From contig JAYZBV010000077.1 of the NCBI GenBank assembly GCA_036338595.1, positions 1 to 64,000 on the forward strand: a stretch of 64,000 nt of DNA. Direction: 5' to 3'. This stretch comes from Planctomycetota bacterium (lineage in GTDB: Bacteria > Planctomycetota > UBA8108 > UBA1146). Positions 39,702 through 56,291 of the stretch are shown piece by piece. The notes beneath the pieces were generated by a model. That model had not been told where the DNA came from, made no database searches, and was given only the letters and a program-made list of their open reading frames with translations. Positions within the stretch are counted from its first letter, which is position 1. Every line of letters starts with the position of its first letter. The position numbers were made by a program, and so were the translations under genes.

Positions 39702-40274
39702 TCAGAGTTCCAGGAACCAGCGGTGGACCTGCGAATCAGTCGTCAATTCGGGGTGGAAGGTGCAGGCGACGCAGCGTCCTTGCCTCACGGCGACCGGTTC
39801 CTGTGCTCGTGTCGCCAGGATCTCCACATCGGCGGCGGGTCGATCGAGACGCGGTGCCCGGATGAAGACGCCCTCGCCCACTCCGGATCGAGGGCCCGAG
39901 ATCCACTCGACGTCACCGATGAAGGAATGGACCTGGCGACCATATCCATTTCGCTGCACCCCGATGTCGATCAGATTCCAGCGCCGTGGCGCTTCGCCAT
40001 CGTCGCGCCCCAGCAGGATCGCTCCGGCACAGGTGCCGAGCACTGCGAGGTCTTCAGCCACAACACGGTCGATGATCATCCTCGACAGGGAGTGGAGATG
40101 GAGCAAGTGGCTCAACGTGGTGCTCTCGCCACCCGGAATCACGAGGTGAGTGATGTCATCGAGTTGGTCGGGGCGACGCAGTTCGAACGGCTCCGCACCC
40201 GCTGCCGACAACGCACGAAGATGCGGCTCGACAGAACCCTGTAACGCCAGAACTGCTGGGCGGACCGATGGCAC
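39702..40274 (-). CDS. pdxT: Pyridoxal 5'-phosphate synthase glutaminase subunit
   Basis: VLALQG, IPGGESTT, GTCAGAILL, RNGYGRQ, FIRAP, FHPELT. Confidence 0.95.
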   Translation of the reverse strand: MPSVRPAVLALQGSVEPHLRALSAAGAEPFELRRPDQLDDITHLVIPGGESTTLSHLLHLHSLSRMIIDRVVAEDLAVLGTCAGAILLGRDDGEAPRRWNLIDIGVQRNGYGRQVHSFIGDVEWISGPRSGVGEGVFIRAPRLDRPAADVEILATRAQEPVAVRQGRCVACTFHPELTTDSQVHRWFLEL

Positions 40275-40276
40275 GG

Positions 40277-41203
40277 TTACCAGCCTCGGACCTGGAGTCG
40301 TTCATCCTCGGGAAGTTTGGTGGCATCCATTCCCTGCATCGCTTTTGGAAGTCCGCTCGAAGCCTCTGCCAGTTCGACCGCGTCATCGAAATGTGCAGTG
40401 GCATGGACGATGGCTGTAGCAGTCCGTATTGGTTCCTCGGATTTGAATATTCCAGAACCGACAAAGACTGCCTCGGCACCGAGTCGCATCACGAGGGCTG
40501 CGTCTGCGGGCGTGGCGATCCCTCCTGCGGCGAAGTTGGGGACAGGCAGTCTGCCCTCCTTGGCGACCTGGCACACCAGCGAGTAGGGGGCGGCCAGATC
40601 CTTTGCAATGCTCATCAATTCCTCGGGACTGGCCTGGGTGATGGCCCGAATCTGGCTGCGGATCAATCTCAGATGCCTGACCGCTTCGGTCACATCACCG
40701 GTGCCCGCCTCGCCCTTGGTACGAAGCATGGCAGCTCCTTCTGCGATGCGGCGTAGCGCCTCACCGAGATTAGTGGCTCCGCAGACAAAAGGCACCTGGA
40801 AGCGGCTCTTGTCGATGTGGTGGGCATGGTCTGCAGGGGTCAGAACTTCCGATTCGTCGATGAAATCGACTTCCAGTGCCTGCAAGATCTCGCCCTCGAC
40901 GAAGTGGCCGATTCTCGCCTTGGCCATGACGGGGATCGAAACCGTTTCCTGGATCTCTCGAACCTTGTCCACAGGTGACATCCGAGCGACGCCTCCGTCT
41001 CTGCGAATGTCAGAGGGAACCCGTTCGAGTGCCATGACGGCAACGGCTCCTGCCTCCTGTGCTGTCCTTGCCTGATCCGCAGTGGTGACATCCATGATGA
41101 CGCCGCCTCGCAGCATCTCGGCGAGGCCGACCTTTGTGCGAAACTCATCATCGGACCCGTTGGCTCTCAACGGAGTGGTGGACTGATCGTTCAAGGCTTC
41201 CAT
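40277..41203 (-). CDS. pdxS: Pyridoxal 5'-phosphate synthase lyase subunit
   Basis: [67 protein letters not shown], terminal RGW; start approximate. Confidence 0.96.
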
Positions 41204-41668
41204 CCTCTCTCTCGATGCAAAGGGTGCGGTGCACCCCCGCAGGCGGAACCCGATATTGCCTCTTCTGCGGTGCAGATGCGAGTGGATCGAGGCCCAGAGA
41301 GGCCCTTTCCGAGCCACCGGGTAGCCGTTATTCTGATGCCAGAACTGCCGGGAATATGGCGAAGATCAGAGGTGCCTGGGAAAGACTCCGGAAATCCCGG
41401 AGAAGGGGACCGATATGAGGCAGACTCCCGGATCCAGTGGCATGTGCTGCTGGATCATCGTCGACAACTCAATTTGTTCGGGGATTCCTTGGTTGAGGTT
41501 CGACTGGCCAGGTCCTGATGGCTGTCGATTTGCCTCGCTGGGTTCTGTACACCGAGCCAGAAGACCGAAGGAAAAACCCCGACGATGATGCCGAGTTGCT
41601 GTTATTCCGCACATGAAGTCCAGCGCGCCAGGACAGAGACGGTTCGCCTCGCCGGGCCCTCTCCCAGG

Positions 41669-43024
41669 ATGAGGACTCTGACCCTGGCTTCCCTTTCATC
41701 ACTGGTATTGCTGATCGGTGGATGGGGACAGGACAATTTGCAAGCGCAGATCTTCGAGCGCGCTCTCGTGCTCGAGGGAGTCCATCTACCCGCACCGGAC
41801 GGAACGGTGCAGGAAAATGCCAACATCATCCTGAGGGGCGGTCGGATCGCCGAGATGGGGCCCGATGCGGATGCTCCAATGATGTCCCGCAAGATGAAGG
41901 TCAAGGGGCTCTTTGCCACCGCAGGGATGACGGATCTCTTCTCTACCCTGACCCTGGATGCGGTGAGCTCGGCAAGCGCTGTTCATAGTGCATGGGATGG
42001 ATTCGACCGATACGACTCGGAACGGATCATGCAGGTGCTCTCAAATGGCGTGACGAGGGTTCACCTGGTTCCGATGGGTGCCGGTGGAATCGTTGGACGT
42101 GCCTGTTCTGTTTCTCTCGGTGAAAGAGAAGGCGGCGGCCATGGGAATCTCGATGCTGAGGATGTTGCGCTCTGTATCGATCTGGATACCGGAACTCCAC
42201 TGCAAAAGATCCGAACCTTTGAAAAGGTGAGATCAGCATTCCTTGCTGCGGAGCGTCGCCGCGACGCCTTCGATGATTACTCCAGTGATCTGGAGGAGTA
42301 CATCAAGGAACTCTCCGAAGCCGCCAAGAAGAAGGCAGAATCAGAGGGCAAGGAAGAGAAGGGCGACGACAAGAAATCCGACGATGAGGAAGAGAAGGAT
42401 AAGGAAAAGGACAAGGATAAGGACAAGGAAGAGGAGAAGGGGCCCGAGAAACCCGGTAGACCTGAGCGCAATCCCGCCTCCGATATCCTGCTTCAGGCTC
42501 TGGACCATGAGTTGCCGGTGATGATCACTGCCCGAAGGAGCCAGGATTTGCAAAATGCCCTCGACCTGATCGAGGAGTTCGGTTTTATCGCCACGATTCA
42601 GGGAGCGGACGAGGCTCACCTGATGCTGGAGGCACTGCAAGAGATGGATCATCTGTCGATCCTGCTCGATGTGCCGCGAACTCCGCTCGAGCGGGGCTCT
42701 GCTCCTCGTCAGGATGCTGCACTGATCTCGAGGCTCGAGGATTCGGGGATCGAATGGTCAGTGGCCAGTGGCGGCGAAAGTACATCTCTCTGGAGGTCGA
42801 TCCAGATGATCGCCGGGCAAGCCGACGGAACCTCTCCACTTCAACTCGCTCTCGCTCAGGGGGCTCGAGGCCGGGGGGCTGGATGGCTTCGTCGGGGTAG
42901 TTCGGAAGTGGTTCTCTGGGACAAGAATCCGGTGCTGGATCCGCTCGCAAGACCTCAGCGTGTGATCATCGATGGTACCGTCGTCTGGCAGCGGCCGGCC
43001 GGCACCCGGGAAGGTAGTTTTTGA
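41669..43024 (+). CDS. Secreted amidohydrolase-fold protein 1 (metal ligands absent)
   Basis: Signal peptide; ILRGGRIAEMG, ATAGMTDLFSTL (no HxH), NGVTRVHLVP, VLWDKNP...RVIIDG; long E/K/D-rich insert. Confidence 0.8.
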   Translation: MRTLTLASLSSLVLLIGGWGQDNLQAQIFERALVLEGVHLPAPDGTVQENANIILRGGRIAEMGPDADAPMMSRKMKVKGLFATAGMTDLFSTLTLDAVSSASAVHSAWDGFDRYDSERIMQVLSNGVTRVHLVPMGAGGIVGRACSVSLGEREGGGHGNLDAEDVALCIDLDTGTPLQKIRTFEKVRSAFLAAERRRDAFDDYSSDLEEYIKELSEAAKKKAESEGKEEKGDDKKSDDEEEKDKEKDKDKDKEEEKGPEKPGRPERNPASDILLQALDHELPVMITARRSQDLQNALDLIEEFGFIATIQGADEAHLMLEALQEMDHLSILLDVPRTPLERGSAPRQDAALISRLEDSGIEWSVASGGESTSLWRSIQMIAGQADGTSPLQLALAQGARGRGAGWLRRGSSEVVLWDKNPVLDPLARPQRVIIDGTVVWQRPAGTREGSF

Positions 43025-44178
43025 TGAGAACTCGCCTTCAACGCGGAACCCTGCTGATCAGTAGGCTTGCCATGGTCGGATTTTTACTGCTCGGCCCATT
43101 GCTGCTGGCAGCGTCGATGGCTGATGACGGTACTTTCGTGATCTCTCCCGTCGGAGTCGTGGGCCCCGATGGAAGTATCTGTCAGCAGATGGCGGTGGTC
43201 ATCGAGCCTGACGGCACCATCGCCGCAGTCATTCCAGCGGATCAGGCAGATCCGAAACTCTCCACCTTCGCCGCCGCATCAGGGGCGGTACTCACGCCGG
43301 GCTTACACGATCTGCTCGGATCTCTGGGTGCCAGGGGTTCCCTGACAGCAGGAACGGTTCTCATCGATAATGAACTGGCTGCTGCGGATGCGTTCGACCC
43401 GACAGATCCGGAACTGGATCGAGCAGCGAAACATGGTGTGCTCTACAGCACCATCGCTGCACTTCCCGCCGGCGTGCTCAACGGCACCACCGCCACTTTC
43501 ATCTGCCGAAGCTCCATCGAAGCCACATCTGTGGCCGCCGGAAAACCATGCTTCGCACTGTCGGGAACCGTTCTCAATTCGTCACGTGAGCCGACCAGCC
43601 GCTCGGCGATGGTCTCGATCTGGAAGGACTGGCTCAAAAGCGGCGACTCCGCACTTCAGAGCCCCGGAATTCTCTTCTGCCCCGATGCCATCGATCTGCG
43701 CCAGACGCTGTCGCTCGGGTGGAAGTCATTGCCAGTGCTGGTCCACTCCGGAGATGCGAGATCTCCCGTCGGGAGGCTCGCAGGCCGGGATGCGATGATG
43801 GTGGTGGGCCCCTTCCTCGAAGGGGGAGATCCGGCAGTGGTGTCGACCGCGATCCGGGCAGCTCGCACCGGAACGGAGCTCGCCTTCAAGGGTGCCTTCG
43901 GTGGAGGTCCTGCAGATCAACTACGAGGTAGTGCCGCGATAGCCGTGTCCGCAGGACTCGACGGCGATGCAGCCAGACGAGCACTTTTCTCCAACCCTGC
44001 CCGGGTCGCCGGTTGCAGCGGTGTGGGAGTCATCGAGCCCGGGGCTCGCGCAGATCTGGTGCTGTTCTCCACCGACCCACTCGATCCAGGAGCGAAAGTG
44101 CTTCAGGTGTGGATCGGAGGAGTCCAGATGCGCTCGGAGCCCACCGGACACATCCGGCCACTGAAAGGAATCCGATGA
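43024..44178 (+). CDS. Secreted amidohydrolase-fold protein 2 (metal ligands absent)
   Basis: TGATG overlap; LTPGLHDLLGSLG (no HxH), PTSRSA, NPARVAG...GVIEPGARADLVLFSTDPL. Confidence 0.8.
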   Translation: MRTRLQRGTLLISRLAMVGFLLLGPLLLAASMADDGTFVISPVGVVGPDGSICQQMAVVIEPDGTIAAVIPADQADPKLSTFAAASGAVLTPGLHDLLGSLGARGSLTAGTVLIDNELAAADAFDPTDPELDRAAKHGVLYSTIAALPAGVLNGTTATFICRSSIEATSVAAGKPCFALSGTVLNSSREPTSRSAMVSIWKDWLKSGDSALQSPGILFCPDAIDLRQTLSLGWKSLPVLVHSGDARSPVGRLAGRDAMMVVGPFLEGGDPAVVSTAIRAARTGTELAFKGAFGGGPADQLRGSAAIAVSAGLDGDAARRALFSNPARVAGCSGVGVIEPGARADLVLFSTDPLDPGAKVLQVWIGGVQMRSEPTGHIRPLKGIR

Positions 44179-45755
44179 AGAAGCAAACCCCGACGAGACA
44201 GCCCTCTGGATTCTTCATTCCAACTTCGATGGCATGGCTGCTGGCTGTGGTGCTGACCGTGTCGCTGGCTCCTGCAACGAGCGCCGCGGTTGTGGCGGGA
44301 GATGCCGAGAAATCGGAAGTGGAACTGGTCAAGGATGTGACCATCCGTGCAGAGCGTGCGCATATCGGAGATGGACAGATCGTCGAGGACGCTCTGATCG
44401 TCATCAAGGATGGCATCATCCAGAGTATCGTCAGCGGTGGTGAGGCCGAGTCGGAGGAAAATGTACTGGTCGTCTCTGACATCACACCTGGACTGATCGA
44501 CGCCAACGCCAGGATCGATGTCGCCGATGCGCTTTATTTCCCGGGAGAGGACCCCAGGCTGCAGATTCTCCGGGTGATGGGTCTGGAAGAACATTTCCAC
44601 GGCGGGGATGTCTGTCCCTGTGGCACGGTTTGCCCCGCCATGACTTCCCATATCGCCGACGAGATGTGCCTTTACTGCGGTTGGCCCGATCACGACCCTC
44701 ACCCTCATGATCCAGGCGATGAAATCGCTGCGGATGCAATTGCGGGTGATCGAGCGGCTGGAGTGCCCGCTCCCAGTGGAGTCGTCAATGAACAATCGAG
44801 TGAGGTCGTGCCTCACTTCGAGGTGCTCGATGCGATCGATCAGGGGTCGGATGATTTCGACCGATTACTCGAAGAGGGAGTGACGACCATCTATGTCAGC
44901 CCCGACTCCTCGGCGGTGATTGGAGGCAGGGGGTCCCTGATGAAGACAGGTGGACCCATTGGAGCCAGATACCTGGGAGCCGGTGCGGTCAAGGGTGTCC
45001 TTGGAAGCGATGCCTATCGATACGGTTCGCGTAACCGCAGCCCATTTCGCACGCTGGTCTCCGTCTACACCAGACGCCCCGATTCCCGGATGGGAGTGAC
45101 ATGGGTGTTTCGCAAGGCGTTCCACGATGCGTTCCTGCGCGCCAGTGGTGTGCAACCCAGCGGCGCGGATACATCCAGTCCCAGTGCCTCGAGAGTGCTC
45201 TCGCAGGTTCTCGCGGGCGAGGTGCCACTGCGGATCCAGGCTCGTACAGCGCCTGATATAGAAACTGCTTTCAGACTGTGCGACGAATTCGGCCTGGATT
45301 TTGTACTCGAGGATCCTGTCGAGGCGTGGAAGCGAGTCGACCTGCTCTCGGAGAGTGGCGTCGATGTCGTGTTCGGGCCGGTTTTTGATGTTCCGAGCGG
45401 AATTCTGGCAGGCACCAGTGAGAGCAGGGGTGCACGTCTGCACACGCTACGTGATCTGGTTTCATCCGGAGTTTCCGTGTCGCTGAGCGCTCAGGACCTC
45501 AGAGGTGAGGAGGGGCTCTCCCGTCAGGTGATGCTGGCGATCCGACATGGAGTCGATCCTGCGATGGCCTTGAAACTGGTGACGCAAAATCCAGCCCGGT
45601 TGCTCGGGATCGATGCCCAGGTGGGAACCATCGAAGCTGGAAAAAGAGCTGACCTGGTCATCTGGAGTGGCACACCCTTCTCCTCTCTGTCACAGATAGA
45701 AAAGGTCTACCACGAAGGTGTGATCTCTTTCATCCGAGGCGGAGCCAATAAATGA
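44175..45755 (+). CDS. Secreted amidohydrolase-fold protein 3 with Cys/His-rich insert (metal ligands absent)
   Basis: ATGA overlap; IKDGII, ITPGLIDANARI (no HxH), EGVTTIYVSP, PDSRMG, NPARLLGI...GTIEAGKRADLVIWSG. Confidence 0.82.
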   Translation: MKKQTPTRQPSGFFIPTSMAWLLAVVLTVSLAPATSAAVVAGDAEKSEVELVKDVTIRAERAHIGDGQIVEDALIVIKDGIIQSIVSGGEAESEENVLVVSDITPGLIDANARIDVADALYFPGEDPRLQILRVMGLEEHFHGGDVCPCGTVCPAMTSHIADEMCLYCGWPDHDPHPHDPGDEIAADAIAGDRAAGVPAPSGVVNEQSSEVVPHFEVLDAIDQGSDDFDRLLEEGVTTIYVSPDSSAVIGGRGSLMKTGGPIGARYLGAGAVKGVLGSDAYRYGSRNRSPFRTLVSVYTRRPDSRMGVTWVFRKAFHDAFLRASGVQPSGADTSSPSASRVLSQVLAGEVPLRIQARTAPDIETAFRLCDEFGLDFVLEDPVEAWKRVDLLSESGVDVVFGPVFDVPSGILAGTSESRGARLHTLRDLVSSGVSVSLSAQDLRGEEGLSRQVMLAIRHGVDPAMALKLVTQNPARLLGIDAQVGTIEAGKRADLVIWSGTPFSSLSQIEKVYHEGVISFIRGGANK

Positions 45756-47383
45756 AATCGAGAGTCCCCGGAGGCGAGGAGCCGATGTTTTCGATGAACT
45801 TCAATAATTTACGCCCACTACCATGGGTCATCGTCACGGTGTTGTTCCTGATGACAACACCGATGGCGCAGGCGAATGGAAACAAGGTTGCTTTCACAGG
45901 AGGGACGGTGTTGACCGTCTCCGGACCTGTCATCGAGGGGGGAGTGATCCTCGTTGAAGACGGCATCATCACTGCAGTCGGCGAAGGGGACACGGAGATT
46001 CCCTACGATGCGATGGAAGTCGACTGCACCGGCATGATCCTGGCTCCTGGATTTGTCGACCCTCACAGTGCGGATGGCCTCGACATTCCCAATGAGAACC
46101 TTCCGAAGGCGCCATTTGTCGACGTCTTCGATGCCATCGATCCATCCAGGTTCTTCTTCGAGGATTCGCTTCGAAATGGTGTCACGACGATTCACGTCAT
46201 GCAGGGCAACAACTGCGTTGTCGGTGGTGTCAGTCGCATCGTGCATCCGATCGGACTCTCTCCACATGAGATGTCACGCCAGGCTGGTGTGGCCATGAAA
46301 CTCTCGACATCTCCTCGACAGGGTTACGATCGATTGAGGCAACTCGCAGAGTTGCGCGAGGTGTTCTCGGAATACGACCGCTGGAGAGAGAATCTTGCAG
46401 AGAAGCGATTCGAGCAGGAGGCGAAAAAAGACGACGATCTGGAGCCCTTGCCCCCCGAGGAGGCGCGCCAGAAGGGGGAGGAGTTGATCCGTGATGAAGA
46501 TCTGGATGATCAGCACCGCAATCTCGCCCACCTCGTCGATGGACGTCTGGGAGCGTGGATATATTGTGGATCGGCCTCGGATGTGGCTCCTGCGCTGGCC
46601 CTCATCTCCGATAGAGGGTGGCAGAAGAACTCGGTGCTGGTGCTGGGAGGAGATGCCCACCTGGCGGTGAGCGAGATCGATGACTCCAACCTTGCCGTGA
46701 TCCTCGATGCGGATCTGGTGTACAGAAAAAGGGACCCCATCCACGGCGAACTGATCGAGACCTTCATCCCGGATATCTACCGCGGTGCAGGGGTGAAATT
46801 TGCCATCCAGCCTTCCAGGACCGGATCGATGCCGGAGAGATTCCTCGGCTACCAGGCAGCTCGCCTGGTCCGCTCGGGAGTGTCTCCAGAAGATGCGTTG
46901 CGCATCGTCACTCTCGGTGCTGCGGAGATCTGTGGCGTCGCGGATCGCTATGGATCGATCGAGGTCGGCAAGGTCGGCAATCTTGTGATGTGGACCGGTG
47001 ACCCCCTCGATCTGACATCCTGGGTCCAGAAGGTCTGGGTCGAGGGCATCCTCGCCTATGATCGTGAAAAGGATGCCAGGCTGGAGAGGCTCTTCCCGGA
47101 AGCTGCCGAGGAACCGGAACCTCCCGCTCCCCTCGATGATGCCGAAACCTCTGAAGAGGATGGAGATGGCGACTCCGCTGCAGAAGACGGGGATCAGCCG
47201 AAGGGTGACGAGGCCGCTGATCCTCAGCCCTTGAAGGAAAAGTCGACCGAGAAGGACAAGAAAGAGGCTCCCGACAAGAAGCCCGTCCCTCCGGACGACA
47301 AGCCGGATGACAAGCCGGACGACAAGCCGGACGACAAGCCGGACGACAAGCCGGACGACAAGCCGACGGTCGGAGAGGTCTAG
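45752..47383 (+). CDS. Secreted amidohydrolase-fold protein 4 (partial metal site) with acidic repeat tail
   Basis: ATGA overlap; VEDGIITAVG, LAPGFVDPHSAD (one His only), NGVTT, GSIEVGKVGNLVMWTGDPL. Confidence 0.82.
   Translation: MKSRVPGGEEPMFSMNFNNLRPLPWVIVTVLFLMTTPMAQANGNKVAFTGGTVLTVSGPVIEGGVILVEDGIITAVGEGDTEIPYDAMEVDCTGMILAPGFVDPHSADGLDIPNENLPKAPFVDVFDAIDPSRFFFEDSLRNGVTTIHVMQGNNCVVGGVSRIVHPIGLSPHEMSRQAGVAMKLSTSPRQGYDRLRQLAELREVFSEYDRWRENLAEKRFEQEAKKDDDLEPLPPEEARQKGEELIRDEDLDDQHRNLAHLVDGRLGAWIYCGSASDVAPALALISDRGWQKNSVLVLGGDAHLAVSEIDDSNLAVILDADLVYRKRDPIHGELIETFIPDIYRGAGVKFAIQPSRTGSMPERFLGYQAARLVRSGVSPEDALRIVTLGAAEICGVADRYGSIEVGKVGNLVMWTGDPLDLTSWVQKVWVEGILAYDREKDARLERLFPEAAEEPEPPAPLDDAETSEEDGDGDSAAEDGDQPKGDEAADPQPLKEKSTEKDKKEAPDKKPVPPDDKPDDKPDDKPDDKPDDKPDDKPTVGEV
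47291..47362 (+). repeat. In-frame tandem repeat, 6 x 12 bp (CCGGACGACAAG), encoding (PDDK)6
   Basis: Five exact copies plus one with a synonymous C>T. Confidence 0.95.
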
Positions 47384-47384
47384 A

Positions 47385-50117
47385 ATGCGATTTCCGCTGA
47401 TCCTGATCGGGATCCTGACACTGTCATGCGCCCAGCCGGCGGGTGCGCAGAGCGCAGGGGATGACTTCGTGCTCCGTGCAGGTACCGTCCACACGGGGAT
47501 TCGAGAGATTCCCGATGGAGCGATCGTGGTCCGCGATGGCAAGGTGGTCGCATCCGCCGCATGGTCGGAACTGCAGGACGATGCCAGTCTCGATCAACTT
47601 CCGCTGGTCCACTGGCCCGATGCCTATGTCACTCCCGGTCTCGTTGCCGCAGCGAGTGGATTGGTCCCTGCGCACTCATCGCCTGAGAGCATCTCCGCTG
47701 CTTTCAGAGCCTCGGATGGGTTCGATCGTTACGGCGACTACCGCCCGCTGTTGAAGACCGGGGTCACCACCGTCCACCTGAGTCCGGGAGAACATCGCCT
47801 CGTCAGCGGCCAGGGTGCTGTGGTCAAACTGGTCGGGGACGCCGACGACCGGATCATCAAATCGAGCTCTGATCTCTCCCTTTCGCTCACCGACGATGTG
47901 GATGGTCCGGGTGCTCTTCTCAAGATTCCATTTCCAGCCTCCAGCGATGTGGCGATCACTGCGCCGGTTCCACAGCGGCCTCGAAGTCGCATCGGCCGTC
48001 TGTTGGCTCTCGGTGAGGCGATCGAGAAATCGACCGAGGATGCTGCAGCCCACGGCGAACTGGCCCAGGCCTGGCAATCGGGATTGCCCCTGAGAGTGGC
48101 CGCTCGCAGAGCACCGGAGATCCTCGCAGCGATCTCCTTCATCCGCGGCAAGGGACGAGAAGGATACATCGTGGGGGGAACAGAGATCGCCGAAGTCTCT
48201 CCAGCGCTGGCTGCTGCGGGAATCCCTCTGGTCCTTCGCATCCAGCTGGTCGGTGGAGATGTGGGATTTTCAGCGAGGGAGCCGATCGAGGGCCTGACCC
48301 ACTGGCCCGATCTGGGAAGCGAAGGACTGCTGGCTCTTGCTCCTCCCGATAACGATCTGGCGCTGCTGCGATGGGCGCTGGTGGAAGCAGCCTCACACAT
48401 GAAGAACCCCGGGGATTCCATCGCACTGGTGACACACAATGCCGCTCGCATCCTCGGAGTCGAGGATCGTGTGGGAAGTCTGCAAGCGGGTGCAGATGCG
48501 GACATCGTGGTCTGGAACGAAGCACCGTGGAACATCAGTGCGCACCCACTTGAAGTGGTTGCCGGGGGCAGGAGCGCCTGGCAGCCGCAGGACAGTTCCG
48601 CAACGGTGATTCGCGCCGAAACGATCTGGCTCTCCCCCGAGGTTGCGATCGCTGATGGCGAGATCCTCCTCGAGGATGGAAAGATCGCATCGGTGGGTCG
48701 AAGAGTTCCGCACCCTCCCCATTCAAAGGTGGTCGATGCGGGGCCGGGCAGTTTTGTCGTTCCTGGTTTCATCGACAGTTTCGGTCATCTCGGATTGCGA
48801 GGTGATTCTGGAGCTGCGGGTACAGGGGATCGCCTTTACAGACTGATCGGATCCGCGGATGAACCGGAACACCGGGTAGCGCGTGCGGGTGTAACTTCAC
48901 AGTTGCTGACTCCGAAGCGGTTGCAGCGTGGTGCTGCCACTGCAGTGATGGTCAAAACTGCGGGCCGGAGCAGAGCAGATCGTGTTGCCCGGCCAGTGTC
49001 TGCGTTGCTGCTGGAAGCGAGTGGCCATCCGGATGAAGCTCTCGGTGGAATCACGCGATTGCTCGGGCAGGGCCAGAAATACCTCGATTCCTGGAAGAAG
49101 TACGAAAAGGAACTTGCAGAGTGGGAAGAAAAGAAGGCCGCGGGTGAAACGATCGAAGCCAAGGAAGAGGTAGAGGAAGAGGTGGTGGAAGAAGGGGGGC
49201 CGGACCCACTCACCGGGATCTGGGAATTGACCATCTCTGGCGGCCCACTTCCTGATGCCGAGACGGTTTCGATTTCGATTCAACTCGAAGGAGACAAGTT
49301 CGAGGGTCGAATCGTGGAGCCTATTCCTCCCATTCCGGTGCGGGTGGTGGGAACCCTCTCCGGGACCACCATCGAAGCGACCATCGAGATCGAAGATGGA
49401 GTGATTCCAGATACTCCCAAGATCGAAGCAGAACTGACCGGAGAAGACGCCCTGTCGGGAACCATCTCGGTGATGCAATTCTCTGCGGATGTAATGGGTA
49501 CTCGCACCAGCAAGGAAGCCAAGACTTTCAAGGTGGAGCGGCGCAAGAAACGAGACGATGACGGTCGTCCCAATCCGCCAAAGGTCAATCTGGCGATGGA
49601 GCCGGTCCGAGATGTACTCGAGAAGAAAATTCCAGTGGTGGTGACTCCCAGCGGTCTGGAAGTCGCAGCAAAGGTCATCGAGTTCTTCTCGAAAAAGAAG
49701 ATCCCCTTGACCCTCAGGCTCGGTCCCGAGATGCGACACTACGGTGATCTTCTGTCGAAAGAATCGGTTTCGGTGATTCTTCCGAAGCAGGTGTCCTATA
49801 CCGTCAATAGAGAAGAATTCGTCCCCGCTACCTTTCTCAGTCGCGCAGGAATCAATGTGGCCTTCCAGAGTCAGGCTTCCGATGGAGCGCGTGCCCTACC
49901 CCAGCAGGCTTTGCAGGCGGTAGAGAGGGGCATGGGAGCCGACGATGCTTTGTATGCACTGACCCGAGGAGCCGCTGAAGCGCTGGGAGCTCAAGATCGA
50001 GTCGGATCGATCGAGAAGGGCCTCGACGCAGACCTGTTGATCTGGAATGGACATCCCCTCGAGGCGGGTAGCACTCTGCAGAGGGTATTCATCGATGGAG
50101 AGGAGGTCCCGAGATGA
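47385..50117 (+). CDS. Secreted double amidohydrolase-fold protein 5 with inserted beta-rich domain (910 aa)
   Basis: Starts 1 nt after the upstream stop. Domain 1 VTPGLVAAASGL...GSLQAGADADIVVW; domain 2 VVPGFIDSFGHLG...GSIEKGLDADLLIWNGHPL; neither has HxH. Confidence 0.82.
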   Translation: MRFPLILIGILTLSCAQPAGAQSAGDDFVLRAGTVHTGIREIPDGAIVVRDGKVVASAAWSELQDDASLDQLPLVHWPDAYVTPGLVAAASGLVPAHSSPESISAAFRASDGFDRYGDYRPLLKTGVTTVHLSPGEHRLVSGQGAVVKLVGDADDRIIKSSSDLSLSLTDDVDGPGALLKIPFPASSDVAITAPVPQRPRSRIGRLLALGEAIEKSTEDAAAHGELAQAWQSGLPLRVAARRAPEILAAISFIRGKGREGYIVGGTEIAEVSPALAAAGIPLVLRIQLVGGDVGFSAREPIEGLTHWPDLGSEGLLALAPPDNDLALLRWALVEAASHMKNPGDSIALVTHNAARILGVEDRVGSLQAGADADIVVWNEAPWNISAHPLEVVAGGRSAWQPQDSSATVIRAETIWLSPEVAIADGEILLEDGKIASVGRRVPHPPHSKVVDAGPGSFVVPGFIDSFGHLGLRGDSGAAGTGDRLYRLIGSADEPEHRVARAGVTSQLLTPKRLQRGAATAVMVKTAGRSRADRVARPVSALLLEASGHPDEALGGITRLLGQGQKYLDSWKKYEKELAEWEEKKAAGETIEAKEEVEEEVVEEGGPDPLTGIWELTISGGPLPDAETVSISIQLEGDKFEGRIVEPIPPIPVRVVGTLSGTTIEATIEIEDGVIPDTPKIEAELTGEDALSGTISVMQFSADVMGTRTSKEAKTFKVERRKKRDDDGRPNPPKVNLAMEPVRDVLEKKIPVVVTPSGLEVAAKVIEFFSKKKIPLTLRLGPEMRHYGDLLSKESVSVILPKQVSYTVNREEFVPATFLSRAGINVAFQSQASDGARALPQQALQAVERGMGADDALYALTRGAAEALGAQDRVGSIEKGLDADLLIWNGHPLEAGSTLQRVFIDGEEVPR

Positions 50118-51352
50118 GGAAACTGACGCTGTTTCTCGTCGCTTTTCTGACGCTGGTCAGTTTCGCCGATGATGTTGCTGCCGCCGATGTCACGGTCTTT
50201 CGAGTCGGCAAGATCATCACCATGGATGATGATGACCGGGTCATCAACAACGCTGTCGTGGTGGTTGTCGATGGGAAGATCACATCGTTAGGTCGATCAC
50301 GAGATATCGAGATCCCCGACGGAGCAGAGGTCATCGACCGGCCACAACTATGGTTGGTCCCGGGAATGGTCGAGTGCCACAACCACACCGGAGGGTCCAG
50401 CCCTGACCTTCACGATTACATCTACCTGACCAATCCTGGCCTGCGAACCCTCGAGTCCGTGGTCCCTGACGGTAAGGAGATGGAACGTGCCAGGGCCGGA
50501 GGAGTCACCACCGTGCTGACGATTCCGGGCAGCGGCAATAACATGTCTGGCTTCGGCACCATCTTGAAGACAGCAGGCACCGGCACGGTCAAGGAAGCTG
50601 TACTGAAGGCTCCTGGATCGTTGAAGATCGCCCAGGCAGGGAACCCTGAGCGATACTTTTACGGTGTGGGTCGATCCTTCATGAACTTCAATACACGCCA
50701 GACCCTGCGCAAGGCGAGAGACTACCACCTCGCTCGAACGGCGTGGGAAGAGGGGAAACTGGCTGCTGAACCTCCGAAGGATCTTCACTGGGAGGAGTTC
50801 CGACCGCTCTTTCGCAGAGAGACGGTCGCATCGGTGCACACCCAGATTTTCCAGGTGCTGATGACCACCGTGAAGATGGTCGCAGGAGAGTTCGGAATTC
50901 GTACCGTGCTCGACCACTCCACCTTTGACGCCTGGAAGGTGGCGAGGCTGGTCAATGAAGACGAGAGCATCTACACCATCAACGGGCCGCGTCAGATTCA
51001 CTATGACCGTACTCAACGTCGGATCATGGGGAATGCTGGGCGCTGGTGGCAGGGAGGCGTGCGACGACTGGGGATCAATACCGACTCTCCGGTGATCCCC
51101 CAGGAGGAGTTGTTCTATCAGGCAGCGATGGCTTGCTACTACGGCTGGACTCCCTACGAGGCTCTCAAGGGGGTGACACGGATTCCTGCAGAAGCACTGA
51201 TGATGGACCACCGACTCGGCAGTATCACGGTAGGCCTGGACGCGGATTTCTGCCTCTGGACAGGCGACCCGATCGATCCTCGTTCATCGTGCGAACTGAC
51301 CATCATCGATGGCAAGGTGACCTACGACGCCAGCGGAAAGCGGGTCTTCTGA
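50114..51352 (+). CDS. Secreted amidohydrolase 6 with an apparently intact metal centre
   Basis: ATGA overlap; LVPGMVECHNHTG (HxH), SLKIAQAGNP (Lys), SVHTQ, LDHST, INTDSP (Asp), GSITVGLDADF. Confidence 0.88.
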   Translation: MRKLTLFLVAFLTLVSFADDVAAADVTVFRVGKIITMDDDDRVINNAVVVVVDGKITSLGRSRDIEIPDGAEVIDRPQLWLVPGMVECHNHTGGSSPDLHDYIYLTNPGLRTLESVVPDGKEMERARAGGVTTVLTIPGSGNNMSGFGTILKTAGTGTVKEAVLKAPGSLKIAQAGNPERYFYGVGRSFMNFNTRQTLRKARDYHLARTAWEEGKLAAEPPKDLHWEEFRPLFRRETVASVHTQIFQVLMTTVKMVAGEFGIRTVLDHSTFDAWKVARLVNEDESIYTINGPRQIHYDRTQRRIMGNAGRWWQGGVRRLGINTDSPVIPQEELFYQAAMACYYGWTPYEALKGVTRIPAEALMMDHRLGSITVGLDADFCLWTGDPIDPRSSCELTIIDGKVTYDASGKRVF

Positions 51353-52692
51353 TGGGTGGTCGAACTCAACTCCTCCCGAGGTGGGCAAGCTGTTTGATGG
51401 TGTTGCTGGTTGCACTGCCAACTCTACCAGCGCAGGCGACTGACGATGCGGATCGTGTCACGGTGATTCGAGCCTCGCGTGTCATCACAGGCACCGGAGA
51501 GATCCTTGAACCAGGCGAAGTTGTTTTCGAGGACGGCAAGATCTCATTGGTTGGAAATCAACTGGAGTATCCCAAGAATGCCAGGATCATCGATGCCCGG
51601 GGGCAGACGCTGATGGCAGGGATGATCCTCGCGCGCTCCAGGCATGGTCTCAGCAATCTTTCGCGAAATGGGATCCATTGTGATTGGTCGCCGTTGCGAC
51701 AGCTGAATGATCAGGAGATGCCCTGGGCTGAATTTCTGGAAGCCGGCATTGTTGCCGCTTCGCTGGTTCCTGCTGGCTCAGGATTTCCAGGACATGCAGT
51801 GGTGGTCAACACAGCGCCCGAGAGTACTGACCGAATCCTCAATGAATCCGCCTTCTTGCCCCTCAATGGAAGAACATCATCTGGACTATACGCCTCGATC
51901 GACAAGGCGTTTGGTGGTGCGAGAGGTGAGATAGAGAAGGTCGAGAAGGCAAGAGAGCAGTGGGACAAGGAACAAGAAGAGGCGAAGAAGAAGGCTGAAG
52001 AAGAATCCGGGAAGAAGGATGGGGAAGCGGCCGAGGAGAAAAAGAAGGATGGGGAAGCCAAGGATGACAAACCCAAGGAGTTCACCCCACCCGAGATGAA
52101 TCCTTCGGTCGTCGAACTGGTCAAGATTCTTCAGGAAAAAGATGACGCTCTTCCGATCGTATTTGATGCGAGCACGCCTGGATTGATCCTTCACTTCGAT
52201 GCTGCCATGGCAGATGTGAAGGAATTGAAGGACCGCGACCCGTTGGGGATCTTCATCCTGCCCGGCACTCGAAATGGTGCCTTCCATCAGGTGGTGGAGA
52301 TGCTCGCCGAACGAAAGGCCACGGTGTTGATTCCGCCTGGTCTCAGTGCTCTTCCCGATACCTACACGAGGATTTCGATTCCCGTGGCGCTGTCTCGTGC
52401 CGGTTGCACTCTGGTGACGATACCGCGCACAGACAATCCTGAGGGGATGAGGAACATCCCTGGCATGCTGGCAGAGCTGGTTCGATATGGTCTCAGCCGC
52501 GAGGCCGCACTGGCCTCGGTCACTACCGAGCCCGCCCGGTTGCTTGGACTTGGAGATCGTATGGGAACCGTCGAGGCAGGTAAGGAGCCGCACTTCGTAC
52601 TCTTCGATGCCGACCCCCTGGAGCCGGGGGCAAGGGTGATGAAGACCATCATCGCAGGCGAGGTGGTCTGGGATCGAGAGGACAACCGATGA
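51352..52692 (+). CDS. Secreted amidohydrolase-fold protein 7 (metal ligands absent)
   Basis: TGATG overlap; FEDGKISLVG, IIDARGQTLMAGMILARSRHG (no HxH), EPARLLGL..RMGTVEAGK; E/K-rich insert. Confidence 0.8.
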   Translation: MGGRTQLLPRWASCLMVLLVALPTLPAQATDDADRVTVIRASRVITGTGEILEPGEVVFEDGKISLVGNQLEYPKNARIIDARGQTLMAGMILARSRHGLSNLSRNGIHCDWSPLRQLNDQEMPWAEFLEAGIVAASLVPAGSGFPGHAVVVNTAPESTDRILNESAFLPLNGRTSSGLYASIDKAFGGARGEIEKVEKAREQWDKEQEEAKKKAEEESGKKDGEAAEEKKKDGEAKDDKPKEFTPPEMNPSVVELVKILQEKDDALPIVFDASTPGLILHFDAAMADVKELKDRDPLGIFILPGTRNGAFHQVVEMLAERKATVLIPPGLSALPDTYTRISIPVALSRAGCTLVTIPRTDNPEGMRNIPGMLAELVRYGLSREAALASVTTEPARLLGLGDRMGTVEAGKEPHFVLFDADPLEPGARVMKTIIAGEVVWDREDNR

Positions 52693-54083
52693 GCACGAAA
52701 ATGAGAGCCTCTCTGGTGATGCTGGCGGTCTTCTTCATGGTGACCGACATTCCGATCAACTTCGGACATCGAGTCCAGATGGCCGGAATCTCGGAGGCAC
52801 AGGACCCGCCACGCCGTCGCCGGCGTGGGCGCCGACCACCGCCCCCTGCGCCAGCACCTGAACCGGAGAAAGAGGAGACGGAGCCAGAGGATCCCGGTGG
52901 CGAGTACCTTGCCATCGTGGGTGCCACCATCCACACCATCACGGGGCCAGTGATTCGCGGCGGAACCGTGTTGTGCAAGGATGGGAAGATCATCTCCATC
53001 GGGGAAGACATCGTGGCGCCCTCGGATGCTGAAAAGATCGACGCTACCGGACACCATCTCTATCCGGGCCTTGTCGCCTTTCGGTCCAGTGGCCTTGTCG
53101 GCTCAGGGGAGCCGGAAAAGACCCAGGATCCGTTTGCGCTCGGCACGGTGATGGGGCTGGCAGCAGGAATCACCTCGACGTGGAACGGCAGCCGTGTCTG
53201 TAAGTTGATTCGAGGCGAAGTCAGCGACCTGACGCTTCGAAACAAGGCCTTCACCTCGATCAGCTATAACAGCAGGAACCCATCCGGGAAACGCGAACTT
53301 CGCGAAGCGCTCGAGAAAGTCCAGGAACACCTCAGGGAACTGGAACGGCACGAGAGTGACAAGAAGGAAAACCCGGATGCGAAAGCTCCCGACGAGAAGT
53401 GGATTCGTGGCCTTTTCTCTACAGCACGCAATTTGCTGACCGGCAAGAGTATTGCACTGACCCGGGCCTCGACCATCTACGATCTACGTGAGGTTTGTGA
53501 GCTGGCCAGGCGGTTTGAATTCGAGATGGTCATCGAGGGAGCTGAAGAGGCATGGATCGAACCCGGAGTGCTGGCGCGCTGCAGGGCATCCGTGGTGTTG
53601 ACTCCTCGTAGTCGCCGAGACCGGGATGAGAGCCGTGGGGCTGCAGGGGGATCCAGCATCGAGAATGCCAGGATCCTGTACGAGCATGGAGTGCCCGTGA
53701 CCATCATGCCGGGCAGTCGAGGAATCGCCTTGTGGGGTCTCGCAGGCCGGGATCTGTCGCACCTACCCCTGGAAGCGGCATTTGCCGTCAGAGGTGGATT
53801 GTCTGAGGATGTGGCGGTGCAGTCGATCACCATCGAACCCGCACGTCTGCTCGGAGTGGCGGATCGAATCGGGTCGATCGAGGTGGGAAAGGATGCCGAC
53901 TTCATCATCATGGATGGCGACCTCCTCTCGTACATGTCTCATGTACGGTGGGCTGTCATCGACGGCAAGATCCAGTACGACAAGGCTGAAGAAGGCCTTC
54001 TGGATCACATACGCCCCGCCGGTGAAGATGAACCCAAGCCTCCCGAAGACCACTGGCCGCGTCGACTCGGAGATCCTCTCTAG
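52689..54083 (+). CDS. Secreted amidohydrolase-fold protein 8 (metal ligands absent)
   Basis: ATGA overlap; KDGKIISIG, IDATGHHLYPGLVAFRSSGL (no HxH), EPARLLGVADRIGSIEVGKDADF. Confidence 0.82.
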   Translation: MSTKMRASLVMLAVFFMVTDIPINFGHRVQMAGISEAQDPPRRRRRGRRPPPPAPAPEPEKEETEPEDPGGEYLAIVGATIHTITGPVIRGGTVLCKDGKIISIGEDIVAPSDAEKIDATGHHLYPGLVAFRSSGLVGSGEPEKTQDPFALGTVMGLAAGITSTWNGSRVCKLIRGEVSDLTLRNKAFTSISYNSRNPSGKRELREALEKVQEHLRELERHESDKKENPDAKAPDEKWIRGLFSTARNLLTGKSIALTRASTIYDLREVCELARRFEFEMVIEGAEEAWIEPGVLARCRASVVLTPRSRRDRDESRGAAGGSSIENARILYEHGVPVTIMPGSRGIALWGLAGRDLSHLPLEAAFAVRGGLSEDVAVQSITIEPARLLGVADRIGSIEVGKDADFIIMDGDLLSYMSHVRWAVIDGKIQYDKAEEGLLDHIRPAGEDEPKPPEDHWPRRLGDPL

Positions 54084-54233: not shown

Positions 54234-56291
54234 ATGCCATCCATCCCCAGCCGATTGCCACTGGTGAACCTCCGCATGGGGGCCCTGGTGGCACTGCTAT
54301 TACTGGCTGGTTTTGCCCCGGTTCAGGGCCAATGTGCCACCGGAGAGATCGAGTTGTTTGGCGTCAGTGCAGGGGATGGTCTTGGCCGATCAGTGGCCAT
54401 TTCGGGTGGGCGAACCTTCATCGGAGCCGTAGGTGATGATGATGGTGGGCTGCTCAGCGGCAGCGTGCGAATTTTCCAGCGAAATTTGAGTGGCTATCAA
54501 CTCGAAGAAGTATTGGTCGGACAGGCGGGTAGCCAGCTCGGCTCCTGCCTCGCGGCAGACGGCAAACTTCTGGCGGCAGGTGCCTCGGGTGCCGGGGCGG
54601 TAGAGATGTGGCGTAGAGATCGCCTCCAGTGGACCCAGATTCAGGTACTCAGTGACCCGCAGGGTCAACCAGGAGACGGTTTCGGCACCTCACTGTCACT
54701 GCACGGCGACCTGCTGGCTGCAGGAAGCCCCTATTTCGAGACCGCCCAGGGTCAGGTCGGCTGTGTCACTCTCTGGAGATTCGACTCCGCGGTGGGGTGG
54801 GAGTTGCAGGAGAGATTGCTCGCTACCGATCGTGTTTCTGGGGATCAGTTCGGTACGGCGGTTTCGCTCGCGGATGGATCCCGCTTGCTGATCGGTGCGC
54901 CAGGTAGAGATTTTCTCGGATCCGATACCGGTTCAGCGTACCTGTTCACCGGTGGAACTGACGGTTGGGTCGAGGAGTTTGACATCGGCACCGGGGCTTC
55001 TGCACCTGGTGATCGGCTGGGAACCTCGGTCGCCATCTCGGGACAGCATCTGCTGCTGGGGTCGCCATATTCGGACATCGCGGGTCCTGATGCGGGAGCG
55101 GTCGTCAACTATCAACGGGTCGGAGACATCTGGGTTCTCGGATCTCATCTGGTCCCACCTTCTGGTGCCAGTGGGTGTGCATTCGGAGCGGTTCTCGATC
55201 TCGATGGGAACCTGTTGACGGTGGGGGCTCCCACCGATACCGGTGGCGAAGCGTTTCCAGCCGGCTCCGTCTCCGTCTATCGCTGGCAGGGAAACTGGCA
55301 ACTGGTGGAATCGCTGACAGGAAACTCCAGTTCCTTCCTCGGTAGTTCGATAGCCGTGCATCGTGGCGTTGTGATCTCGGGTGCTCCCTTCGATTCTACT
55401 CTGGCACCTGTTGGCGGAAACGCCGTACTGGTGGTTCATGGAGATGAGGATTGCGATCTCGACGGGGAGCCGGATTCATGCTCGATAGCCTCAGGGCTGG
55501 TCGAGGATTGCGATCTGGACGGTGTCATAGATAGTTGCGGGATCTCGCAGGGACTGTCGATCGACTGTGATGGAGATGGCATCCCGGATTCCTGCGCAAC
55601 GCTGGAGGGCACCGTTGCCGATTGCGATGGGGATGGAGTTCCCGATATTTGCGCCATCGATTCAGGCCTTGTCACCGATTGCGATGGCGACGAGATCCCC
55701 GATGTCTGCCAGGTGGATTGCAATCAGAACCTGATCCCGGACGCGTGCGAGATCAGCCAGGATGGATTCCTCGATTGCGACAGTGATGGCTTGCTCGATA
55801 TCTGCGAACTTGAGACGGGAAGTGAACCCGATTGCGATGCCAACGGAATCATCGACAGTTGCGACCCCGATTGCAACGGCGACGGAACACCCGATGAGTG
55901 CGAGTTCCTCGAAGGAATGGCGGAAGATTGCAACAGCAATCACATTCCAGACGAGTGTGACCTTGCAGAAGCGAACAATGACACCAACTCGAACGGTCTG
56001 CTGGACTCCTGTGAAGCTGGTTTCATTCGTGGTGAGGCAGATGGGGTTGAAGGAGTTGGAATCTCCGATGCGATGCTACTGATCGCAAGGGTATTCGGCG
56101 ATGTTGCGATTCCCGATTGCCCGGAGGCCGCAGATGCAAATGCGGATGGTTTGCTGGACATCTCTGATGGACTGTATCTGCTCTACTATCTTTTCATGGG
56201 CCAGCCCGCACCCGTCTCTCCCTTTCCGGAATGCGGGATCCTACCTGTTGATGCGGTATTCAACTGTGAGATGCATCCGTCTTGTCCCTAG
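54234..56291 (+). CDS. Secreted FG-GAP beta-propeller protein with Cys/Asp calcium-binding-like repeats and C-terminal dockerin-like module
   Basis: Repeated (F/L)G.S(V/L)A..G....GAP blades; about ten DCDxDG(I/V)PDxC units; FIRGEADG...ISDA...AADANADGLLDISDG. Confidence 0.82.
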   Translation: MPSIPSRLPLVNLRMGALVALLLLAGFAPVQGQCATGEIELFGVSAGDGLGRSVAISGGRTFIGAVGDDDGGLLSGSVRIFQRNLSGYQLEEVLVGQAGSQLGSCLAADGKLLAAGASGAGAVEMWRRDRLQWTQIQVLSDPQGQPGDGFGTSLSLHGDLLAAGSPYFETAQGQVGCVTLWRFDSAVGWELQERLLATDRVSGDQFGTAVSLADGSRLLIGAPGRDFLGSDTGSAYLFTGGTDGWVEEFDIGTGASAPGDRLGTSVAISGQHLLLGSPYSDIAGPDAGAVVNYQRVGDIWVLGSHLVPPSGASGCAFGAVLDLDGNLLTVGAPTDTGGEAFPAGSVSVYRWQGNWQLVESLTGNSSSFLGSSIAVHRGVVISGAPFDSTLAPVGGNAVLVVHGDEDCDLDGEPDSCSIASGLVEDCDLDGVIDSCGISQGLSIDCDGDGIPDSCATLEGTVADCDGDGVPDICAIDSGLVTDCDGDEIPDVCQVDCNQNLIPDACEISQDGFLDCDSDGLLDICELETGSEPDCDANGIIDSCDPDCNGDGTPDECEFLEGMAEDCNSNHIPDECDLAEANNDTNSNGLLDSCEAGFIRGEADGVEGVGISDAMLLIARVFGDVAIPDCPEAADANADGLLDISDGLYLLYYLFMGQPAPVSPFPECGILPVDAVFNCEMHPSCP

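Follow-up and report, generated by a model that had tools for sequence, protein, structure and literature searches.

Results

Organization of the operon

The window, i.e., the whole 64,000-nucleotide stretch of planctomycetal DNA analyzed here, contains a same-strand run of eight open reading frames that encode nine amidohydrolase domains (D1 to D9), with no gene of any other type between them. This layout had been predicted from the sequence, and the coordinates were re-read as follows ("dead" denotes domains without the complete set of metal residues):

41669..43024, + strand: gene 1, D1, dead, 451 aa, with a long charged insertion behind barrel strand 4
43024..44178, + strand: gene 2, D2, dead in the window, 384 aa, with the site nearly complete in a few remote lineages
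44175..45755, + strand: gene 3, D3, dead, 526 aa (Pfam match, ligand check, orthologue counts)
44592..44708, + strand: Cys/His-rich insert in D3, directly past the lost HxH
45752..47383, + strand: gene 4, D4, dead, 543 aa, with the first His and the Lys alone usually retained
47385..50117, + strand: gene 5, D5 and D6 fused by a short linker, both dead, 910 aa
49215..49511, + strand: beta insert in D6, eight strands on a helical stalk (secondary structure of the model)
50114..51352, + strand: gene 6, D7, active-type, 412 aa (H89, H91, K171, H242, H268, D324)
51352..52692, + strand: gene 7, D8, dead, 446 aa (Pfam match, ligand check, orthologue counts)
52689..54083, + strand: gene 8, D9, dead, 464 aa (ligand check, orthologue counts)

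The junctions read TGATG, ATGA, ATGA, a 1-nt gap, ATGA, TGATG and ATGA, matching the predicted series at every position. Overlaps of -1 or -4 occur at 6 of the 7 junctions, compared to 157 of 582 close same-strand pairs of long ORFs genome-wide (P ~0.002), and in orthologous operons an overlap is present, depending on the junction, in only 29/149 to 124/161 cases. A promoter and terminator scan at the operon gave results at chance level (1 vs 3.1; 11 vs 8.1). The export signal claimed for every gene was found as an N-terminal hydrophobic stretch in 8 of 8 proteins (11-residue Kyte-Doolittle mean of 2.5-2.8, a heuristic); past residue 60, the same heuristic yields no strongly hydrophobic 19-mer in any of them (maximum of 1.1-1.7).

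Two of the inserts were followed across orthologues. The insert loop of D3 contains at least three Cys in 55 of 144 orthologues (a script count, with two of them mis-parsed) and is possibly a separate metal-binding module. D6 exceeds 470 aa in 142 of 160 orthologues, and most of its beta insert is without a match in Pfam.

Metal sites and fold

The motifs at the HxH position of all nine domains agree with those listed in the original prediction, and gene 6 is, as proposed, the only gene in the window with all six metal residues. In D7, His-x-His, Lys, His, His and Asp are found at strands 1, 4, 5, 6 and 8 in 280 of 280 copies. The six-residue set is absent from genes 1-5, 7 and 8 in the window and present in 1 of 1200 orthologous domains, namely a D2 (6/6 residues in one of 141 D2 orthologues, at locus L239, with 5/6 in two more, L190 and L048). 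All 137 D1 orthologues retain 0-2 of the six residues; in D4 orthologues, the His is kept in 118/149 and the Lys in 126/149, with never more than four of six.

Pairwise identity among the nine domains in the window is 14-26%. Genes 3-8 reach the cut-off of the Pfam amidohydrolase models, gene 2 falls below it and gene 1 is unmatched; genes 1 and 2 were assigned with a profile derived from the domain set itself, together with weak NCBIfam matches. All nine domains belong to a subfamily of amidohydrolases whose closest structure is PDB 3OOQ, an uncharacterized protein of Thermotoga maritima MSB8 with 10 chains in the entry. This structure is the best match to active and dead domains alike, and carries H-x-H, K, H, H and D at the equal positions. 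D7 matches 3OOQ with E 3e-41 by sequence, the next-best structure being the carboxypeptidase Cc2672 (E 1e-14), and the predicted D7 model matches it with TM 0.83; for D4 the match is E 2e-30. The AlphaFold2 model of D5+D6 (pLDDT 93, pTM 0.81 over 886 residues) is consistent, by its pTM, with a fixed packing of the two domains; the result list of the fold search with this model was filled by D5 matches, with Z 39.8, rmsd 2.5 A and 346 aligned residues for 3OOQ and Z 22.9 for the next match. The D7 and D5+D6 models thus match 3OOQ in the fold of the amidohydrolase superfamily, a TIM barrel with an N/C-terminal beta-sandwich.

Gene 6 remains far under the curated NCBIfam cut-offs, with 34 vs 298 bits for TIGR01224 (imidazolonepropionase HutI) and 72 vs 500 bits for NF051886 (Caulobacter-type Xaa-Pro dipeptidase). 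The cog1228 peptidases (Cc2672, PDB 3MTW), Xaa-Pro dipeptidases and ochratoxinase share the superfamily and the six-residue binuclear site; however, the cog1228 peptidases differ in having ~16% identity in structural alignment and TM 0.57, and we know of no dead partners of peptidases of this type. According to PMC13081902, 3MTW has a ligand set of this type with dinuclear zinc. We infer that D7 is a binuclear hydrolase with a carboxylated Lys. Metal-dependent bile salt hydrolases, reported in two 2026 preprints (PMC13081902, PMC13081988) and marked by closeness to 3ICJ/NfdA-type hydrolases and by taurine-binding residues, probably form another, 3ICJ-like subfamily; the structures named for them are 3ICJ and 3MTW, and the best match of the operon is 3OOQ.

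Conservation and selection of the dead domains

D7 is carried by ~110 of 401 sampled Planctomycetota genomes. The order of six dead domains, D7 and two dead domains is found at 140 of 175 distinct loci, and 31 of the remaining 35 stop at a contig or locus edge. Of the 110 genomes in which a D7 orthologue was detected (E<1e-100), 109 match a dead-domain profile that is not strictly D8-specific, and the last one (L234) has D1-D8 in place. The eight dead domains are single-copy at their positions in the loci examined. As to distribution beyond the phylum, two of the best 80 of 536 stretches bear other NCBI labels (L071, L095), and in the ESM Atlas one cluster close to D3 consists largely of Acidobacteriota sequences.

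The dead domains are subject to purifying rather than relaxed selection, with dN/dS of 0.04-0.33 for all of them in 8 genome pairs. The positions also form their own groups, as had been anticipated: D4, D7, D8 and D9 are single clades in both trees, and D1, D2, D3, D5 and D6 need 1-3 changes. D9 shows a weak affinity (SH-aLRT 78) to the dead members of the pair and triple systems described below. One might argue that the dead copies are decaying duplicates without joint function, given that their catalytic residues are lost and that frameshifts occur in a few loci. Purifying selection, phylum-wide order and confident folds contradict this, in line with the earlier claim that these are not decaying pseudogenes, and we regard decay as hardly credible.

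D7 is the most conserved member: its dN/dS is the lowest, or close to it, in the genome pairs, and 58 of its columns are at >=88%. This bears on the idea that the assembly serves mainly a structural or regulatory purpose (an envelope cage or sensor), or that the chemistry of the dead domains is independent of metal, the activity of D7 being secondary. Long charged helical extensions and the inserts of D6 and D3 would fit such a role; conversely, the conservation of D7 and the lack, in the conserved columns, of any alternative catalytic constellation common to the dead domains make it very improbable.

Genuine fusions join dead domains 5+6 in every locus, 1+2 in three loci, 1+2+3 in three and 8+9 in one; D7 is never fused to an operon neighbor among the loci examined. 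Apparent fusions D4+D5+D6 (L037) and D3+D4 (L056) were discarded as assembly artefacts, as their reading frames cross N gaps.

Variation of the active gene

The dead set is constant and single-copy, while the intact D7 multiplies and diverges. In 140 complete loci, a sample enriched for one multi-copy family, D7 is found in one copy in 93, two in 16, three in 12, four in 18 and five in 1. Among all 112 genomes scored in that family, 1 has no D7, 4 have one, 23 two, 40 three, 40 four, 4 five and none more. A hard ceiling of four copies was ruled out by L201, which has five; the drop from four to five may reflect a common ancestor with about four paralogues, given that kin are not independent. 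Copies within one locus are tandem and 32-69% identical, with different pocket loops. In addition, 15 loci have orphan D7 genes with no dead neighbor within the examined flank, and in one genome (G182) the operon is split at D6/D7 (L175, L271) with all nine domains kept. Gene number and order, which the original prediction proposed to test, are conserved for the dead domains, and "one active subunit" is not a fixed number. A strict 1:8 machine becomes merely one option; the orphans and the G182 split further indicate that D7 need not be translated together with the scaffold and may work alone.

Smaller systems of active and dead domains

The operon is not an isolated case: the same subfamily forms two-gene pairs (one active and one dead domain) and triples (dead-active plus dead), and one D2 has a complete site. 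Both systems are found in the genome of the window (C109, C86) and in 10 and 16 of the retrieved loci. Such smaller systems can link an active domain to a dead one within a single polypeptide; in L251, all three domains are fused. These pairs and triples (dead-beta-active plus dead) resemble the operon in the division into active and dead domains, in export and in the adjacency of genes, and differ in having one or two dead domains versus eight. Profile scores did not discriminate between pair and triple dead types for the dead domains of the operon, and we found no characterization of these systems in the literature.

The existence of two- and three-domain versions suggests another arrangement, in which the operon strings together pair or triple units (e.g., D1-D2-D3, D4-D5-D6 and D7-D8-D9) that assemble separately or mix. 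Consistent with it, genuine fusions never span 3|4 or 6|7, the G182 split is located at 6|7, and D2 occupies the central place of a fused triple, as the active domain does in L251, with ligands retained in some lineages. However, units without an active domain are never lost singly in complete loci, G182 retains all nine, and the four fused junctions would all miss two boundaries by chance with a probability of ~0.2. We consider several small complexes improbable.

Gene neighborhood and substrate

The flanking genes of the operon are not conserved across the phylum and thus provide no pathway context to fix the substrate. Orphan D7 genes adjoin S9 peptidases in 5 of 13 loci (three of these orthologous), an M81 peptidase is near the orphan at L219, and an M28 peptidase is downstream of the operon in 4 related loci; peptidases are common neighbors by chance. 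The second-best structure match of D7, the carboxypeptidase noted above, was counted as a further substrate hint.

The dead domains could also be free periplasmic ligand-binding proteins, with the pocket retained and the metal lost, that capture substrates or present them, either to D7 or for transport, and form no stable complex. Such a function agrees with polar and aromatic residues that are conserved in a position-specific manner in D3, D4, D6 and D9, and with the fact that D7 diversifies and can be an orphan. Yet the number of binding proteins would be expected to depend on the niche, whereas the eight are single-copy and the enzyme varies, and no transporter family recurs in the annotated flank clusters (9 ORFs scanned of 30 clusters). 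This alternative likewise appears improbable.

Discussion

The dead paralogues are co-encoded, conserved and under selection, as expected for a hetero-oligomer with pseudo-enzyme subunits. The dead-domain order, the positional groups and purifying selection make the hetero-oligomer the best reading, so that this part of the original prediction passes its own tests of conservation and selection, albeit as an inference and with an active count that is not fixed. We believe that the operon likely encodes an exported hetero-oligomer, in which a fixed pseudo-enzyme scaffold carries binuclear amide hydrolases that can be exchanged and whose probable substrates are peptides or N-acyl amino acids. The chains would be exported by Sec-type signals, probably to the periplasm, and would assemble through oligomer surfaces inherited from a homo-oligomeric ancestor, each dead domain taking a defined position and the eight together forming a constant scaffold. 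D7-type subunits would plug into one or more slots of this scaffold, and would cleave an amide bond by means of two metals bound at His-x-His, a carboxylated Lys, two further His and Asp. Short peptides and N-acyl amino acids are the most likely substrates. Additional D7 genes, whether duplicates or orphans, would bring alternative specificities to one scaffold.

Among the candidate subunit numbers, 12 (8 dead and 4 active) is slightly favored, at well below even odds; 10 (8 and 2) and 9 or 18 (one of each) follow closely and are equally likely, and any other number is a little less likely still. A complex prediction for D7-D8 (77-row alignments) scored 0.00, which counts neither for nor against contact; a later tree suggests D9 as a better choice than D8 to pair with D7 in such a prediction. 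Covariation between domains (132 and 86 loci) was uninformative: within-domain contacts recur, and the between-domain signals come down to hub columns and to the overlap at the D5/D6 boundary. A bolder version of the hetero-oligomer, which we regard as quite possible though short of probable, is a phylum-wide exported cage of eight pseudo-enzymes with plug-in catalytic slots, reprogrammed in specificity as further D7 paralogues arise inside the operon or at other sites in the genome, as an amidohydrolase-fold counterpart of proteasome subunit exchange. Four slots are possible in such a cage, giving a dodecamer, which would also fit six pairs or four triples.

The proteasome, chloroplast ClpP/ClpR, CRMP hetero-tetramers and archaeal TET hetero-dodecamers are homo-oligomers diversified into paralogous subunits, some of them dead and some exchangeable, as in the immunoproteasome. 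These complexes have other folds or are eukaryotic; to our knowledge, none of them is a bacterial particle that is exported and combines eight dead subunit types with a variable catalytic gene. In 3OOQ, one sequence makes up all ten chains, in contrast to nine paralogous exported domains, eight of them dead; a literature search found no paper naming this structure. Nor did we find a description of the operon in the literature, in a search that covered subscription papers and bioRxiv supplements thinly. In the Pseudomonas aeruginosa ATCase-pseudo-dihydroorotase dodecamer, a dead chain of amidohydrolase fold is an obligatory scaffold for the active enzyme (PMC7053772); this complex is cytoplasmic, with one dead chain type, an enzyme of another fold and no series of paralogues.

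Members of the 3OOQ subfamily are automatically annotated as imidazolonepropionase-like, and as eight domains here are dead, 8 of the 9 such annotations are probably wrong. The series of one-, two-, three- and nine-domain systems, with the half-dead D2 and the still-expanding D7, is a test bed for the change from a homo-oligomer to a fixed hetero-oligomer. If the proposed particle is real, about a quarter of the sampled Planctomycetota devote 12 kb to a particle in the periplasm whose subunits are for the most part dead enzymes, the ratio of pseudo-enzymes would be extreme for a bacterial complex, and the 3OOQ subfamily would gain its first function.

Conservation of the operon

The amidohydrolase operon (eight + strand genes, 41669..54083; domains D1-D9, with D5 and D6 fused in gene 5 and the active-type D7 as gene 6, 50114..51352) is real and conserved. 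The window is contig C77 of a 2.9 Mb genome. Re-reading of it bore out the eight open reading frames, the seven junction sequences, the hydrophobic stretch at each N-terminus and all nine motifs at the HxH position on which the original prediction was built. Overlaps of -1 or -4 occupy 6/7 operon junctions, compared to 157/582 comparable gene pairs genome-wide (P ~0.002); thus, translational coupling is above the genome background, but ordinary in kind.

Gene 6 orthologues served as anchors for fetching loci, which came from close kin, from the phylum at large, and from a single multi-copy family, and the domains were typed with position profiles; 175 of 211 loci with matches were kept after dropping duplicates and loci without D7. 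The window order, i.e., six dead domains (those without the full set of metal ligands), D7, and two dead domains, was found in 140/175 loci, so that gene number and order are, as suggested, kept elsewhere for the dead domains. Among the remaining 35, 31 run into the end of a contig or locus; the last four are two orphan D7 genes (without dead-domain neighbours), a split operon, and a locus in which no adjacent D9 is recognisable, for which a D9 candidate lies on another contig. The operon of genome G182 is in two pieces, D1-D6 and D7-D9, on two contigs (L175, L271), and all nine domains are kept. In an even sample of the phylum, the D7 profile was matched at 1e-60 by 148/401 genomes and at better than 1e-100 by 110/401 (table tally); of these 110 genomes, 109 also matched the D8 profile, at a cut-off that is not specific to D8. 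Named relatives of gene 6 among the best 80 of 536 matches are almost all Planctomycetota MAGs.

Trees were built by FastTree and IQ-TREE, using subsets of 190 and 101 rows; position alignments exclude domains of <300 residues, as well as four loci that contain broken pieces. The expectation that each position forms its own clade held by both methods for D4, D7, D8 and D9, and only partly for the others: for D3 and D6, FastTree gives single clades and IQ-TREE requires two changes; for D1, D2 and D5, two or three changes are required. Relaxed selection on the inactive copies, named at the outset as a point against the system, was not what we found, the dN/dS in eight genome pairs being 0.04-0.33 for the dead domains and 0.01-0.13 for D7. 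That the dead domains are simply decaying duplicates is highly improbable.

Other features of the operon and its surroundings:
44592-44708, in D3: insert rich in Cys/His with a C-x2-C-G motif, present in the window lineage and many Phycisphaerae loci, missing in others
49215-49511, in D6: predicted beta insert of eight strands, resembling by eye the segment between the dead and the active domain in the protein on contig C86 of this genome
52809-52860, in gene 8: run rich in Arg/Pro (RRRRRGRRPPPP) downstream of the signal region
54234-56291, 3' of the operon: exported FG-GAP repeat protein, its repeats rich in Cys and Asp; 23 loci, most of them from the window's own family, have such a gene 3' of the operon, and it is not conserved phylum-wide
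39702-41317, minus strand, divergent to the operon: SOR/SNZ (PdxS) gene, presumably with a PdxT partner

Fold and metal site

The top PDB match of both gene 6 and gene 4, far ahead of all others, is 3OOQ, an uncharacterised Thermotoga maritima MSB8 amidohydrolase structure; in the NCBIfam scan, no model reached the cut-off. Gene 6, as modelled by AlphaFold2 (pLDDT 86), has a TM of 0.83 to 3OOQ, and its six putative metal ligands (H89, H91, K171, H242, H268, D324) align to those of that structure. According to PMC13081902, the same six-residue set coordinates a pair of zinc ions in 3MTW-type enzymes, the Lys being carboxylated. Gene 6 is predicted to bind metal and to be active. For the gene 5 fusion, the model (pLDDT 93, pTM 0.81) matches 3OOQ in its D5 part (Z 39.8), indicating that, as modelled, the whole fold is retained by the dead domains.

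The predicted single-active pattern stands insofar as all six residues are present in 280/280 D7 copies, and fails insofar as the active gene occurs in 1-5 copies and D2 of locus L239 has all six residues. Three or fewer are found in 1193/1200 non-D7 domains. Five are present in D2 of L190 and L048. The H-x-H motif is retained by 11 D2, 6 D4 and 1 D6; these ligand-retaining domains suggest that D2 was probably the last of the dead domains to die. In some distant lineages (L190, L170, L048), position 2 retains the majority of the metal residues.

Smaller systems and copy number

Two smaller systems of the subfamily occur in this genome:
C109:9962-12561: active and dead pair, two genes; 10 similar loci (L057-L066)
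C86:3-3817, minus strand: three-domain version, a dead-beta-active gene with a dead gene after it; probably continues on C89:2-982

The triple pattern was found in 16 fetched loci (L241-L256), permuted in L250 and fully fused in L251. The active types of operon, pair and triple cluster in the tree (SH-aLRT 95); the grouping of D9 with the dead partners in these two smaller systems is weak (SH-aLRT 78).

The dead domains are single-copy, and D7 stands in 1, 2, 3, 4 and 5 tandem copies in 93, 16, 12, 18 and 1 complete loci, respectively, in a sample enriched by the choice of loci. In the multi-copy family, D7 counts of 0 to 5, orphans included, were obtained for 1, 4, 23, 40, 40 and 4 of all 112 scored genomes. 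Copies within one locus are 32-69% identical, sort into old subtypes and local duplications, and differ at loops around the pocket. Intact orphan D7 genes were found in 15 loci, from genomes chosen for also having tandem D7 copies. Among the dead domains, 5 and 6 are always fused, and fusions 1+2, 1+2+3, and 8+9 also occur; no D7 fusion was found among the fetched loci.

A probable scaffold with exchangeable catalytic subunits

Number, order and selection are constant for the dead set, which also has internal fusions with short linkers, as predicted for a stoichiometric scaffold; D7 multiplies, diversifies, never fuses, and can relocate, as predicted for a plug-in catalytic subunit. We consider a fixed scaffold of dead domains with plug-in D7 subunits the probable arrangement. 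That the dead domains act as free binding proteins is unlikely, and a structural or regulatory role is less likely still. A dodecamer would fit the pair (x6), the triple (x4), an 8+4 composition, and the drop from four to five D7 copies; however, shared ancestry can also explain this drop, and five D7 copies in one locus and the ten chains of 3OOQ run counter to a dodecamer. Separate small complexes instead of one particle are an unlikely alternative, slightly ahead of free binding proteins.

Diversification of paralogues with dead or exchangeable subunits is familiar from the proteasome, ClpP/ClpR, CRMP and TET. A literature search, with most subscription journals outside its scope, found no description of the operon. 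A dead scaffold of amidohydrolase fold is already known: the pseudo-dihydroorotase of the P. aeruginosa ATCase dodecamer (PMC7053772).

The cog1228 relatives, the export, and the peptidases beside orphan D7 and one operon group tip the balance slightly toward short peptides or N-acyl amino acids as substrate, a reading weakened by flanking genes that are not conserved. Downstream of an orphan D7 in L219:11484-17583 lie genes for DUF1611, a PLP protein resembling alanine racemase, and an M81/MlrC peptidase; DUF1611 is linked to D-amino-acid N-acetylation. In L261, L267 and L270, an S9 peptidase lies directly 3' of orphan D7, with a Gfo/Idh/MocA-epimerase gene on the other side in L261 and L270. 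In the scaffold arrangement, the operon products would be exported, the exported chains would assemble, and D7 would fill the slot or slots of the scaffold and hydrolyse amides.
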